Origin: Escherichia coli
GTDB taxonomy: Bacteria > Pseudomonadota > Gammaproteobacteria > Enterobacterales > Enterobacteriaceae
DNA: 64,000 bases
NCBI RefSeq assembly: GCF_003334305.1
Contig: NZ_QOWS01000004.1
Strand: one strand, 5' to 3'
Positions 10,659-61,415 of the stretch are shown here, piece after piece. The notes below the pieces were generated by a model, which was not told the origin of the DNA, searched no databases, and saw only the letters and a program-made list of their open reading frames with translations. A program made the translations under genes and the position numbers. The stretch's first letter is position 1. Every line of letters starts with the position of its first letter.

Positions 10659-10680
10659 AGATTCCTCACTGTTTGCCTTG

Positions 10681-10716
10681 CCTGATGCGACGCTCACGCG
10701 TCTTATCAGGCCTACA
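10681..10716. repeat. REP (repetitive extragenic palindromic) element
   Basis: GCCTGATGCGACGCTCACGCGTCTTATCAGGCCTAC, the classic E. coli REP consensus, between cysI and cysH. Confidence 0.85.
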
Positions 10717-17152: not shown

Positions 17153-17222
17153 GTAGGCCGCACGCCACATCCGACATTCAGCGCCTGATGCGACGCTTGA
17201 CGCGTCTTATCAGGCCTACAAG
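17153..17222. repeat. REP element pair between convergent ygcP and ygcQ
   Basis: GTAGGCCGCACGCC...GCCTGATGCGACGCTTGACGCGTCTTATCAGGCCTAC. Confidence 0.8.
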
Positions 17223-22642: not shown

Positions 22643-22690
22643 AAAAAAAAAGAAAGGTAACTTCCCCCGCGAGAGGGAAGTTACCTTTCT
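22643..22690 (-). terminator. Intrinsic-terminator-type hairpin in the ygcW 5' leader (candidate attenuator)
   Basis: Minus-strand RNA: AGAAAGGUAACUUCCC-UCUCGCGG-GGGAAGUUACCUUUCU followed by U8; perfect 16-bp stem; U-tract ends 24 nt before the ygcW ATG. Confidence 0.65.
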
Positions 22691-29120: not shown

Positions 29121-29152
29121 AAAAAATGCCAGCCCGGAGGCTGGCATTTTTA
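29121..29152. terminator. Bidirectional intrinsic terminator between convergent ygcG and eno
   Basis: AAAAAATGCCAGCC-CGGA-GGCTGGCATTTTTAAA: stem flanked by an A-run and a T-run. Confidence 0.8.
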
Positions 29153-30484: not shown

Positions 30485-30556
30485 TCACTAGTTAAACTGA
30501 AACTCCAGACAAACAACGCGTACCCAGGGTACGCGTTGCCGTTCTAACTTTTTTAC

Positions 30557-40403: not shown

Positions 40404-40455
40404 GCCTGTGTTTATGCCGGATGCGGCGTTAACGCCTTATCCGGCCTACAAAACC
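40404..40455. repeat. REP element downstream of barA
   Basis: GCCTGTGTTTATGCCGGATGCGGCGTTAACGCCTTATCCGGCCTACAAAACC. Confidence 0.8.
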
Positions 40456-40536
40456 AATTAAATTCAATGAATTAAAAAATGATGTAGACCTGATACATAG
40501 CACAACAGGCTATTTTGCGTTTAGCATCAGTCTCAA

Positions 40537-54345: not shown

Positions 54346-54375
54346 GCCGGATACGCCGCAAACGTCGTATCCGGC
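54346..54375. terminator. Inverted-repeat hairpin between convergent xni and fucO (probable bidirectional terminator/REP-like)
   Basis: GCCGGATACG-10 nt-CGTATCCGGC. Confidence 0.45.
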
Positions 54376-56217: not shown

Positions 56218-56763
56218 TAGCTACCTCTCTCTGATTCAAAACAGGGCAATAATGTTGTTCCTTTCACACTATTGAATTAGCCGTTTAATTACCCACCATC
56301 TTCTTCCTGATTAACAAGAAAGAAATTCACAAGCTTATATTTTGTGACCTGGTTCAACTAATCACAGTAAATAACTGCAAGTTCTCTTTTTATAACCCCA
56401 TTAAAAATGACCGCTCTTAAAAATATTTATCAAAACGGTCATTTTTCTATTCACCCAAGCCAGGAATGCCCGTTTTCGGCATAAACAATTAATACGGTCA
56501 TCTGGTTTGTGTTTTTTATGATTTATTTTCTGAAACGGGCATGAAATTTCGATTATTAAAGTGATGGTAGTCACATAAAGTCACCTTCCAGCTAATAAGT
56601 GTGACCGCCGTCATATTACAGAGCGTTTTTTATTTGAAAATGAATCCATGAGTTCATTTCAGACAGGCAAATATTCACTGATATGAAGCCCGAACTCGCT
56701 GGTTTTGCACTTTTGAAAACATAACCGATTACGTGCTTAAGCTTCTGAACCTAAGAGGATGCT
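56218..56763. promoter_or_regulatory. Divergent fucAO / fucPIKUR control region
   Basis: 546-nt AT-rich intergenic region between divergent fucA and fucP; CRP/FucR sites expected but not individually resolved by eye. Confidence 0.6.
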
Positions 56764-58112: not shown

Positions 58113-59888
58113 ATGAAAAAAATCAGCTTACCGAAAATTGGTATCCGCCCGGTTATTGACGGTCGTCGCATGGGTGTTCGTGAGTCGCTTGAAGAACAAA
58201 CAATGAATATGGCGAAAGCTACGGCCGCACTGCTGACCGAGAAACTGCGCCATGCCTGCGGAGCTGCCGTCGAGTGTGTCATTTCCGATACCTGTATCGC
58301 GGGTATGGCTGAAGCCGCTGCTTGCGAAGAAAAATTCAGCAGCCAGAATGTAGGCCTCACCATTACGGTAACGCCTTGCTGGTGCTATGGCAGTGAAACC
58401 ATCGACATGGATCCAACCCGCCCGAAAGCCATTTGGGGCTTTAACGGCACTGAACGTCCCGGCGCTGTTTACCTGGCAGCGGCTCTGGCAGCTCACAGCC
58501 AGAAAGGCATCCCGGCATTCTCCATTTACGGTCATGACGTTCAGGATGCCGATGACACATCGATTCCTGCCGATGTTGAAGAAAAACTGCTGCGCTTTGC
58601 CCGCGCCGGTTTGGCCGTCGCCAGCATGAAAGGTAAAAGCTATCTGTCGCTGGGCGGCGTTTCGATGGGTATCGCCGGTTCCATCGTTGATCACAACTTC
58701 TTTGAATCCTGGCTGGGAATGAAAGTCCAGGCGGTGGATATGACCGAACTGCGTCGCCGTATCGATCAGAAGATTTACGACGAAGCCGAACTGGAAATGG
58801 CACTGGCCTGGGCTGATAAAAACTTCCGCTATGGCGAAGATGAAAATAACAAACAGTATCAACGCAATGCCGAGCAAAGCCGCGCAGTTCTGCGCGAAAG
58901 TTTACTGATGGCGATGTGTATCCGCGACATGATGCAAGGCAACAGCAAACTGGCCGATATTGGTCGCGTGGAAGAATCACTTGGCTACAACGCCATCGCT
59001 GCGGGCTTCCAGGGGCAACGTCACTGGACCGATCAATATCCCAATGGTGACACCGCCGAAGCGATCCTCAACAGTTCATTTGACTGGAATGGCGTGCGCG
59101 AACCCTTTGTCGTGGCGACCGAAAACGACAGTCTTAACGGCGTGGCAATGCTAATGGGTCACCAGCTCACCGGCACCGCTCAGGTATTTGCCGATGTGCG
59201 TACCTACTGGTCACCAGAAGCAATTGAGCGTGTAACGGGGCATAAACTCGATGGACTGGCAGAACACGGCATCATCCATTTGATCAACTCAGGTTCTGCT
59301 GCGCTGGACGGTTCCTGTAAACAACGCGACAGCGAAGGTAACCCGACGATGAAGCCGCACTGGGAAATCTCTCAGCAAGAGGCTGACGCTTGCCTCGCCG
59401 CTACCGAATGGTGCCCGGCGATCCACGAATACTTCCGTGGCGGCGGTTACTCTTCCCGCTTCCTTACCGAAGGCGGCGTCCCGTTCACCATGACTCGTGT
59501 CAACATCATCAAAGGCCTGGGACCGGTACTGCAAATCGCGGAAGGCTGGAGCGTGGAATTGCCGAAGGATGTGCATGACATCCTCAACAAACGCACCAAC
59601 TCAACCTGGCCAACCACCTGGTTTGCACCGCGCCTCACCGGTAAAGGGCCGTTTACGGATGTGTATTCGGTAATGGCGAACTGGGGCGCTAACCACGGGG
59701 TTCTGACCATCGGCCACGTTGGCGCAGACTTTATCACTCTCGCCTCCATGCTGCGTATCCCGGTATGTATGCACAACGTTGAAGAGACCAAAGTATATCG
59801 TCCTTCTGCCTGGGCCGCGCACGGCATGGATATTGAAGGTCAGGATTACCGCGCTTGCCAGAACTACGGCCCGTTGTACAAGCGTTAA
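58113..59888 (+). CDS. fucI: L-fucose isomerase
   Basis: 591-aa [33 protein letters not shown]... Confidence 0.97.
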
Positions 59889-59996
59889 TACATTACTCCC
59901 TGATGTGATGCCCGGTCGCTCCGGCTACCGGGCCTGAACAAGCAAGAGTGGTTAGCCGGATAAGCAATGTTATCCGGCTATATTGCAGGAGCGATT

Positions 59997-61415
59997 ATGA
60001 AACAAGAAGTTATCCTGGTACTCGACTGTGGCGCGACCAATGTCAGGGCCATCGCGGTTAATCGGCAGGGAAAAATTGTTGCCCGCGCCTCAACGCCTAA
60101 TGCCAGCGATATCGCGATGGAAAACAACACCTGGCACCAGTGGTCTTTAGACGCCATTTTGCAACGCTTTGCTGATTGCTGTCGGCAAATCAATAGTGAA
60201 CTGACTGAATGCCACATCCGCGGTATCGCCGTCACCACCTTTGGTGTGGATGGCGCTCTGGTAGATAAGCAAGGCAATCTGCTCTATCCGATCATTAGCT
60301 GGAAATGTCCGCGAACAGCAGCGGTTATGGACAATATTGAACAGTTGATCTCCGCACAGCGGTTGCAGGCTATTTCTGGCGTCGGAGCCTTTAGTTTCAA
60401 TACGTTATATAAGTTGGTGTGGTTGAAAGAAAATCATCCACAACTGCTGGAACGCGCGCACGCCTGGCTCTTTATTTCGTCGCTGATTAACCACCGTTTA
60501 ACCGGCGAATTCACTACTGATATCACGATGGCCGGAACCAGCCAGATGCTGGATATCCAGCAACGCGATTTCAGTCCGCAAATTTTACAAGCCACCGGTA
60601 TTCCACGCCGACTCTTCCCTCGTCTGGTGGAAGCGGGTGAACAGATTGGTACGCTACAGAACAGCGCCGCAGCAATGCTCGGCTTACCCGTTGGCATACC
60701 GGTGATTTCCGCAGGTCACGATACCCAGTTCGCCCTTTTTGGCGCTGGTGCCGACCAAAATGAACCCGTGCTCTCTTCCGGTACATGGGAAATTTTAATG
60801 GTCCGTAGCGCCCAGGTTGATACTTCGCTGTTAAGTCAGTACGCCGGTTCCACCTGCGAACTGGATAGCCAGGCAGGGTTGTATAACCCAGGTATGCAAT
60901 GGCTGGCATCCGGCGTGCTGGAATGGGTGAGAAAACTGTTCTGGACGGCTGAAACACCCTGGCAAATGTTGATTGAAGAAGCTCGTCTGATCGCGCCTGG
61001 CGCGGATGGCGTAAAAATGCAGTGTGATTTATTGTCGTGTCAGAACGCTGGCTGGCAAGGAGTGACGCTTAATACCACGCGGGGGCATTTCTATCGCGCG
61101 GCGCTGGAAGGGTTAACTGCGCAATTACAGCGCAATCTACAGATGCTGGAAAAAATCGGGCACTTTAAGGCCTCTGAATTATTGTTAGTCGGTGGAGGAA
61201 GTCGCAACACATTGTGGAATCAGATTAAAGCCAATATGCTTGATATTCCGGTAAAAGTTCTCGACGACGCCGAAACGACCGTCGCAGGAGCTGCGCTGTT
61301 CGGTTGGTATGGCGTAGGGGAGTTTAACAGCCCGGAAGAAGCCCGCGCACAGATTCATTATCAGTACCGTTATTTCTACCCGCAAACTGAACCTGAATTT
61401 ATAGAGGAAGTGTGA
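59997..61415 (+). CDS. fucK: L-fuculokinase
   Basis: Start at [21 protein letters not shown] (GGAG SD 5 nt upstream), 472 aa; the ORF extends upstream to 59967. Confidence 0.93.

Follow-up and report, generated by a model that had tools for sequence, protein, structure and literature searches.

The 108 nt spacer between fucI and fucK, within the fucPIKUR operon of Escherichia coli, contains two hairpins that are the two halves of an old doublet of repetitive extragenic palindromes (REPs), similar to a bacterial interspersed mosaic element (BIME). The spacer occupies positions 59889-59996 of the 64,000 nt stretch analysed here (the window), which is a segment of an E. coli chromosome; its K-12 equivalent is 2937360-2937467. 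In particular, positions 59700-60200 match several E. coli genomes at 100% identity and are found in 5425 of 5426 complete genomes, under the annotations fucI and fucK; these are the same gene names that had been given by an earlier model reading made from the letters and their open reading frames (the sequence-only reading). From 52.5 kb on, the window is collinear with K-12 (87 mismatches) and is not itself K-12; its first ~50 kb (before ~52.5 kb) are not collinear with K-12, so that K-12 gene names are used only for 52.5-64 kb. The features of the locus are as follows.

58113-59888, plus strand: the fucI open reading frame (ORF), from the ORF list.
59886-59888, plus strand: the TAA stop codon of fucI, from the sequence, the ORF list and the RefSeq annotation of identical or near-identical E. 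coli loci.
59889-59909, plus strand: a mostly unpaired 21 nt segment from the fucI stop codon to hairpin 1, from alignment, pair probabilities and a motif scan.
59910-59939, plus strand: hairpin 1, a left REP relic (GCCCGGT class) with its disrupted CTAC tail, from folding, alignment and a covariance model (CM R2).
59934-59952, plus strand: the A-rich linker between the hairpins, homologous to the linker of the REP doublet, from alignment.
59951-59980, plus strand: hairpin 2, a right REP relic (Y class), from a repeat finder, folding, a second covariance model (CM R1) and a REP-tail pattern.
59981-59999, plus strand: the AU-rich translation initiation region of fucK, from the sequence, annotation and a motif scan.

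Within the last of these, the fucK Shine-Dalgarno sequence is AGGAG at 59987-59991 and the start codon is the ATG at 59997-59999. A motif scan of the spacer finds two RNase E-like motifs, ACAUU at 59890 and AUAUU at 59980-84. No sigma-70 promoter-like or intrinsic-terminator-like site is found in a scan of 59500-60300, and both an internal fucK promoter and a classical terminator are rejected on these empty scans. The integration host factor (IHF) pattern WATCAANNNNTTR is absent from the spacer, its best match having three mismatches, and the Rfam 15 covariance models have no match over 59000-61000 at E values up to 10. A literature search returned no study of the fucI-fucK spacer and none assigning it a role. 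The K-12 RefSeq record NC_000913.3 annotates no REP at the site; however, the record has no repeat_region features of either kind, REP or CRISPR, across ~62 kb despite the canonical REPs there, making the missing annotation uninformative.

The two hairpins have the sequences that the sequence-only reading described. Hairpin 1, read as GCCCGG-N12-CCGGGC, matches base for base (59910-59915 and 59928-59933), and hairpin 2 is a perfect 11 bp inverted repeat (TAGCCGGATAA at 59953-59963, loop GCAATG at 59964-59969, TTATCCGGCTA at 59970-59980) that ends 16 nt before the fucK ATG, as had been noted. The repeat finder returns hairpin 2 with 11 nt arms that are 100% complementary and a 6 nt loop, and hairpin 1 with 10 nt arms that are 90% complementary and a 4 nt loop, composed of 7 bp, one C/T mismatch and 2 bp. 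As RNA, hairpin 1 has a predicted folding energy of -17.4 kcal/mol (stem 59910-59916/59927-59933, inner pairs 59918-19/59924-25, loop UCCG at 59920-23), and hairpin 2 has a predicted folding energy of -16.7 kcal/mol (stem 59953-63/59970-80, loop GCAAUG at 59964-69). The sequence-only reading had proposed structure prediction as a check, and both stem-loops do fold strongly and beyond chance: the minimum free energy of 59880-60010 is -46.4 kcal/mol, compared to -33.1 ± 3.6 kcal/mol across 200 dinucleotide shuffles (z = -3.74), with 0 of 200 shuffles as good. Moreover, perfect hairpins of at least 11 bp with 3-10 nt loops occur at four loci in the window, compared to 0.13 per shuffled window.

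In a 400 nt context, the predicted pair probability is ~1.0 for hairpin 2 and ~0.67 for hairpin 1. The linker (59934-59952) has a mean unpaired probability of 0.4, and 59892-59898 can pair weakly with 59946-59952, forming an outer helix with a pair probability of ~0.3. A structural switch in which 59920-27 would pair with 59953-60 is rejected, as this pairing has a probability of ~0 and gives a fold that is worse by 13 kcal/mol. Downstream, 6 nt lie between the end of hairpin 2 and the fucK Shine-Dalgarno sequence, which has a predicted unpaired probability of ~0.5. The loop of hairpin 2 also contains an ATG (59967-59969) that is in frame with fucK, which is why the ORF list begins the fucK ORF at 59967 (482 aa, compared to the annotated 472 aa from 59997). 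However, E. albertii reads ATA at this position, making the loop ATG an unlikely start codon. Hairpin 1 of a divergent lineage (L003) has UUCG in place of UCCG as its loop (the change is at the equivalent of 59921); with its C-G closing pair, this is a classic extra-stable tetraloop.

The REP ancestry of the hairpins becomes apparent in orthologous spacers. Across 80 loci, obtained by scanning FucI relatives at one genome per species, a REP doublet is present in the fucI-fucK spacer of Citrobacter (7 loci), Klebsiella spallanzanii, Salmonella enterica subsp. arizonae and a record titled Serratia marcescens. The canonical doublet at the orthologous position consists of GCCCGGTGGCGC..TTACCGGGCCTAC, a linker, and then GTAGGCCGGATAAG..CCATCCGGC. 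For example, one such doublet is TTGCCCGGTGGCGCAAGCTTACCGGGCCTAC, a 13 nt linker and GTAGGCCGGATAAGCGCAGCGCCATCCGGC, followed by the fucK ATG 18-19 nt further on. In a MAFFT alignment, the E. coli spacer aligns with these column for column, where the left REP is matched by hairpin 1 and the right REP by hairpin 2, and the ribosome binding sites (RBSs) coincide. Hairpin 1 aligns to GCCCGGTGGCGCAAGCTTACCGGGCCTAC in the orthologous spacers and, by our count on this alignment, keeps 22 of 29 consensus positions. Overall, the fucI-fucK spacer already held a REP doublet before Escherichia, Citrobacter, Klebsiella and Salmonella separated, and derivation from REPs is the main explanation of why the hairpins exist.

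Two covariance models assign the halves to their REP classes with different strengths. CM R1, for the right REP class, was built from nine non-Escherichia copies and one canonical E. coli REP, so that 9 of its 10 training sequences are orthologues of the fucI-fucK site itself. Over the whole window, it ranks its training copy first, followed by canonical REPs of another subclass at 10680-10715 and 17183-17219 (~27 bits) and then hairpin 2 (59951-59978, plus strand, 24.0 bits, E = 1.7e-3 over 64 kb); the next score is at most 15.9 bits. CM R2, for the left REP class, includes two independent E. coli copies and ranks hairpin 1 fourth, on the correct strand, after three canonical REPs (13.8 bits, with E = 0.48 window-wide and 8e-4 within the spacer alone). 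Further, the REP-tail pattern TTATCMGGCCTAC, allowing at most two mismatches, matches only REPs and the hairpin 2 site. By its profile score, hairpin 2 qualifies as a member of the REP family, and the assignment of hairpin 1 relies mainly on positional homology, which is clear.

By published criteria, a REP is extragenic and transcribed with its flanking genes (i), palindromic (ii), 14-40 nt long in E. coli (iii), a match to a family consensus (iv) and present in many copies (PMC12306157). The fuc hairpins lie between two genes of one operon, a location read from the sequence; both form stem-loops, with lengths of 24 and 28 nt, and hairpin 2 carries the Y-class consensus motif, ranking just below the canonical REPs. 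The sequence of hairpin 2 occurs at a median of 1 place per E. coli genome, where matches of ~20 nt are needed; Y-class REPs occur at a median of 13 places per genome at stringent matching, and REPs of the GCCCGGT class are rare in E. coli (1-5 copies). The BIME layout of two inverse REPs and a linker is also present: the left REP is on the plus strand and faces the linker with its CTAC tail, the right REP (inverted Y class) faces it with GTAG, and the linker is 13-30 nt long in the orthologues and 19 nt long in E. coli.

The same type of doublet is found elsewhere in E. coli. An intact GCCCGGT-class REP followed by an inverted Y-class REP is present in the phnD-phnE spacer (L091, 1496-1583) and in the hpaF-hpaH spacer (L092, 1493-1602), where 7-10 nt separate the upstream stop codon from the left REP and 18-19 nt separate the right REP from the downstream ATG. 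These doublets have the same composition, the same orientation to transcription and the same distance from the right REP to the ATG as the one in the fuc spacer; in contrast, they keep the full consensus with both CTAC and GTAG, whereas the fuc copy has decayed and starts 21 nt after the stop codon. The fuc spacer holds a decayed example of a type of doublet found repeatedly within catabolic operons. It is an undescribed, and possibly new, member of a very well-known kind of element, and an ordinary finding otherwise.

The decay of the Escherichia copy has removed the features that a REP needs for mobility. Both guide tetranucleotides are lost, with GTTAG (59951-55) in place of GTAG in hairpin 2 and CTgaAC (59934-39) in place of CTAC in hairpin 1. 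In hairpin 2, the apical GCGC/GCGC and the AA/C bulge, which is present in 9 of 9 non-Escherichia orthologues, have been replaced, with A-T pairs at the bulge, resulting in a perfect stem. The paper on the crystal structure of TnpA-REP bound to a REP reported that GTAG is essential for binding and cleavage and that correcting the stem mismatch abolishes binding (PMC3479197). As substrates of this enzyme, hairpins 1 and 2 have no intact guide and hairpin 2 has no stem mismatch. These losses, judged from the sequences of the two halves, argue that the fuc hairpins are immobile relics, and not active REP doublets forming hairpins (REPINs).

The surroundings of the doublet have changed as well. 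The halves of the intact orthologous doublets pair with each other into one long hairpin, whereas the E. coli halves fold separately. Compared to Citrobacter and Klebsiella, the alignment places an insertion of ~12 nt, found only in Escherichia, after the fucI stop codon. The distance from the stop codon to the left REP is 9-13 nt in 8 of 9 non-Escherichia orthologues and 21 nt in Escherichia; in 11 of 12 orthologues, the right REP end (...CCGGC) lies 17-19 nt from the fucK ATG. In one clinical isolate, 13KWH46 (NZ_CP019250.1), an IS3-family element has inserted into the hairpin 1 loop (59918-59923) with a 5 bp target duplication (CTCCG), placing ~1.3 kb between fucI and fucK. Judging by its ends, we take this element to be IS2.

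The Escherichia spacer is also conserved. The E. albertii and E. coli spacers differ at 2 of 108 sites, both in the hairpin 2 loop, whereas the third codon positions of fucI and fucK differ by 13.5-15.2%. For L003, 7 of 108 spacer sites differ, compared to 20% of third codon positions. The spacer's rate of change is therefore 0.13-0.33 of the third-codon-position rate, or 3-7 times slower (binomial P = 1e-5 for E. albertii and 8e-5 for L003). In particular, a 58 nt stretch that runs from the linker to the ATG, taking in hairpin 2 and the RBS, is unchanged in L003 (P = 2e-6), and the hairpin 2 stem is invariant in both comparisons, varying only in its loop. By the same comparisons, part of the fucA-fucP intergenic region has 13-22 changes per 100 nt; it diverges freely, and so low mutation input is not the cause of the spacer's conservation. 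The spacer is under purifying selection.

Among E. coli genomes, 5423 of the 5425 with a match have the spacer at an identity of at least 95%. Across six variant genomes, the positions that differ from the window are 59894 (T>G), 59927 (A>G), 59936 (G>A) and 59996 (T>C). The only substitutions seen in a stem are 59927 A>G in E. coli and 59933 C>T in L003, a small sample in which both changes convert a Watson-Crick pair to G.U. Such pairs are tolerated in RNA and not in DNA, and these few changes suggest that pairing within the RNA is what is preserved.

Hairpins are also found at the same junction in more distant gammaproteobacteria. Fourteen additional fucI-fucK spacers, with lengths from 45 to 100 nt, were collected from Mangrovibacter, Buttiauxella, Pluralibacter, Photorhabdus, Yersinia, Edwardsiella, a Pasteurellaceae member, Psychromonas and others. 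Each of these spacers, which lie beyond the REP-bearing genera, contains a stable GC-rich hairpin of unrelated sequence, and most have no T-run. Across 26 spacers, the median folding z is -3.4 and 85% are at -2 or below; in contrast, same-length coding controls from the same loci have a median z of -0.1 and 8% at -2 or below (Mann-Whitney P = 3e-14). The constraint on the spacer, together with a stable hairpin in every gammaproteobacterial spacer examined, argues for a function.

These results bear on the possibility that the doublet is leftover selfish DNA with no role in fuc expression, conserved as a result of short divergence and generally constrained intergenic DNA. The loss of the GTAG and CTAC guides from both halves, the drift of hairpin 1 far from its consensus (13.8 bits), the tolerated IS2 insertion in its loop in one clinical isolate and a published record that gives the spacer no role all agree with a neutral relic. 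However, a neutral relic would not readily account for a spacer that changes at a fraction of the third-codon-position rate while a nearby non-coding stretch diverges freely, for stems that stayed strong after the consensus decayed (and, in hairpin 2, became perfect), or for distant relatives that have no REPs and still have a junction hairpin. We consider neutrality rather unlikely.

On balance, the fuc doublet is probably an immobile and constrained relic that acts as an intercistronic stabiliser of the upstream fucPI mRNA and may insulate the fucK RBS. REP stem-loops within mRNAs are barriers to ribonucleolytic decay and attenuators (reviewed in PMC12306157), and it is by analogy that we infer every step concerning mRNA decay and the FucI/FucK ratio. 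Within the fucPIKUR mRNA, the two hairpins would be transcribed and would fold into two stem-loops independent of each other; once endonucleases had cut the message further downstream, 3′-to-5′ exonucleases would be halted at the stems, and the fucP-fucI part of the message would outlast the fucK-fucU-fucR part. In addition, hairpin 2 may keep the fucK RBS free of upstream pairing, and may cap the 5′ end of a processed fucK message. The sequence-only reading had guessed at an mRNA stability or processing element that would let fucI and fucK be expressed at different levels, without recognising the REP family; the stability part of that guess fits the origin of the hairpins in a REP doublet, their constraint and the recurrence of hairpins at the junction.

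Its second guess, a partial terminator, fared worse. More generally, the hairpins could act as a transcriptional attenuator, where RNA polymerase pauses or partially terminates, with or without Rho, and fewer transcripts continue into fucK, fucU and fucR. REP and BIME hairpins have been reported to act in this way (PMC12306157), the junction has two GC-rich stems of about -17 kcal/mol each within 108 nt of untranslated RNA, and in one relative (L013) a T-rich run comes after the hairpin. In E. coli, however, the stems are trailed by CUGAACAA and UAUAUUGC and not by U-tracts, the scan of 59500-60300 contains no terminator-like site, and the free C-rich segment is only ~21 nt long. A length of ~21 nt is too short for a typical Rho loading (rut) site. 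Moreover, the downstream gene fucR, for the activator of the regulon, still needs to be expressed, and no 3′ end at the junction is among the entries listed from Term-seq of uninduced cells (Adams et al. 2021). An attenuator at this position is improbable. The same Term-seq data place 3′ ends inside fucP (57443; K-12 2934914) and inside fucR (~62056; K-12 2939527).

A different possibility is that hairpin 2 mainly controls the translation of fucK, by uncoupling it from fucI termination, by setting the accessibility of the RBS, or by defining the 5′ end of the fucK message after a cut at AUAUU. The close spacing between the right REP and the ATG, at 17-19 nt in 11 of 12 orthologues and 18-19 nt in phnD-phnE and hpaF-hpaH, supports this, as do the unchanged 58 nt in L003 and the location of the RNase E-like AUAUU (59980-84) between hairpin 2 and the Shine-Dalgarno sequence. 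However, the fixed spacing may only reflect REPs settling as near to an RBS as selection allows, and the unpaired probability of the Shine-Dalgarno sequence is ~0.5 either way. As the main role of hairpin 2, translation control is doubtful; it is also compatible with the stabiliser model and not exclusive of it.

It is highly improbable that the element is instead a DNA-level site, in which the 11 bp palindrome binds FucR or CRP, or is bound by IHF, gyrase or Pol I as in BIMEs. Hairpin 2 is a perfect inverted repeat with a 6 bp spacing, the primary sequence of the right REP is kept across genera, and links of REPs, as DNA, to the organisation of the chromosome and to DNA topology have been described (PMC12306157). 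However, REP ancestry already explains the palindrome, the spacer has no IHF consensus, and there is no promoter-like site nearby on which a regulator could act. Further, the substitutions in the hairpin 1 stem keep RNA pairing (G.U) and not DNA pairing, and distant relatives keep a junction hairpin and not its sequence.

Several observations weigh against the reading of the fucI-fucK junction as a REP-derived RNA stabiliser. The Term-seq tables of Adams et al. 2021, from uninduced cells grown with no fucose, have no 3′ end for fucI or fucK among the entries listed, a listing that may be incomplete. Hairpin 1 is not significant against the REP model over the whole window (E = 0.48), and the spacer is conserved about as well as an average coding sequence, and no more. 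The lower stems of the right REP are near-invariant across genera, so that there is no true compensatory covariation and conservation could be acting on the DNA. Finally, 12 of the 26 spacers have the REP doublet in common, so that the set is not phylogenetically independent.

Spot 42, a small RNA, has been reported to repress fucI and fucK (PMC12612679). A Spot 42 site at the fucK leader was considered and set aside; a scan with its single-stranded regions finds nothing special there, as 9-37% of windows are as good. An 11 bp contiguous match (ACCGATTACGTG) to single-stranded region III of Spot 42 lies in the fucP 5′ untranslated region (UTR), at 56712-56736, 28 nt upstream of the ATG of fucP, and is the best region III site in the whole fuc operon (-18.3 kcal/mol). 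The 100 nt around this match have one difference compared to E. albertii and one compared to L003. The repression reported for fuc genes may in fact act through this site.

Other REPs and perfect hairpins are present in the window. Canonical REPs of the Z type (GCCTGATGCGACGC...TTATCAGGCCTAC) are at 10680 (10680-10715) and 17183, and one of the Y type is at 40416; degenerate partner copies are at 17153-75, 17239-57 and 40484-40510. A REP-like palindrome, GCCGGATACGCCGCAAACGTCGTATCCGGC, lies at 54346-54375, where ygdG (xni) and fucO converge at their 3′ ends; it has neither GTAG nor CTAC and scores ~12 bits with the REP model on both strands. The other perfect hairpins are a 16 bp stem at 22651-22690 (AGAAAGGTAACTTCCC...GGGAAGTTACCTTTCT) preceded by an A-run, a 13 bp stem at 29122-29151 with A5/T5 flanks that looks like a bidirectional terminator, and an 11 bp stem with a 3 nt loop at 30514-30538.

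If the stabilising role is true, the fuc spacer would be one more selfish repeat that was kept as a post-transcriptional tuning element in a catabolic operon. The locus also provides an unusually clean comparative series, with an intact doublet in Citrobacter and Klebsiella, a decayed and constrained doublet in Escherichia, and unrelated hairpins in distant relatives, which can be used to ask what selection acts on in intercistronic REPs. For engineering of the fuc operon, including 2′-fucosyllactose strains, propanediol work and the replacement of fucI or fucK, the spacer holds a structured and conserved RNA.

Among known systems, the closest comparison is to the intercistronic REPs of malE-malF and hisJ-hisQ (Higgins et al. 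1982, as cited in PMC3479197). Like these, the fuc hairpins are REP-derived stem-loops between the cistrons of a sugar or nutrient operon, they are part of the operon transcript, they have no U-tract, and the upstream message would be expected to be protected. Unlike these, the fuc copies are degenerate, with no GTAG or CTAC and with replaced apical parts, and their presumed role comes from the analogy. Newbury, Stern and Higgins are said to have worked on REPs as mRNA stabilisers. A second comparison is to the BIME and REPIN doublets mobilised by RAYT (TnpA-REP) proteins (PMC3479197, PMC3116915, PMC3337134). The fuc element shares their inverse REPs and short linker; in contrast, its halves fold apart, have neither GTAG nor the bulge, and are joined by a linker without the IHF motif that marks BIME-1, and its left half belongs to the GCCCGGT class and not to the Y or Z class of BIMEs.

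REPs that begin at most 15 nt from a stop codon have been reported to stall terminating ribosomes (Liang, Rudd and Deutscher 2015, as cited in PMC12306157). The left REP of 8 of 9 non-Escherichia orthologues (9-13 nt) is within this class and the Escherichia hairpin 1 (21 nt) is outside of it; the ~12 extra nucleotides put hairpin 1 beyond the 15 nt limit, making ribosome stalling unlikely in Escherichia. The fuc hairpins also resemble Rho-independent terminators, as GC-rich stem-loops at a gene end, and differ from them in that neither stem is followed by a U-tract.

The last comparison is to the synthetic tunable intergenic regions of Pfleger et al. 2006, in which two hairpins flanking an RNase E site reportedly set the relative expression of two genes. 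By extension, the immobile doublet could have been domesticated as their natural counterpart, where selection would have kept its stems, and perfected that of hairpin 2, so as to fix the ratio of FucP and FucI to FucK, FucU and FucR. We regard this stronger claim as unlikely. If it holds, the fixed ratio could, for example, limit the build-up of fuculose-1-phosphate, and other gammaproteobacteria would have arrived at it too, by way of unrelated hairpins at the same junction. The fuc element differs from the synthetic regions in being natural and of transposon origin, and in having RN|WUU-type motifs only outside of its linker (59890 and 59980); like them, it places two stable hairpins around a single-stranded, A-rich linker between two cistrons.

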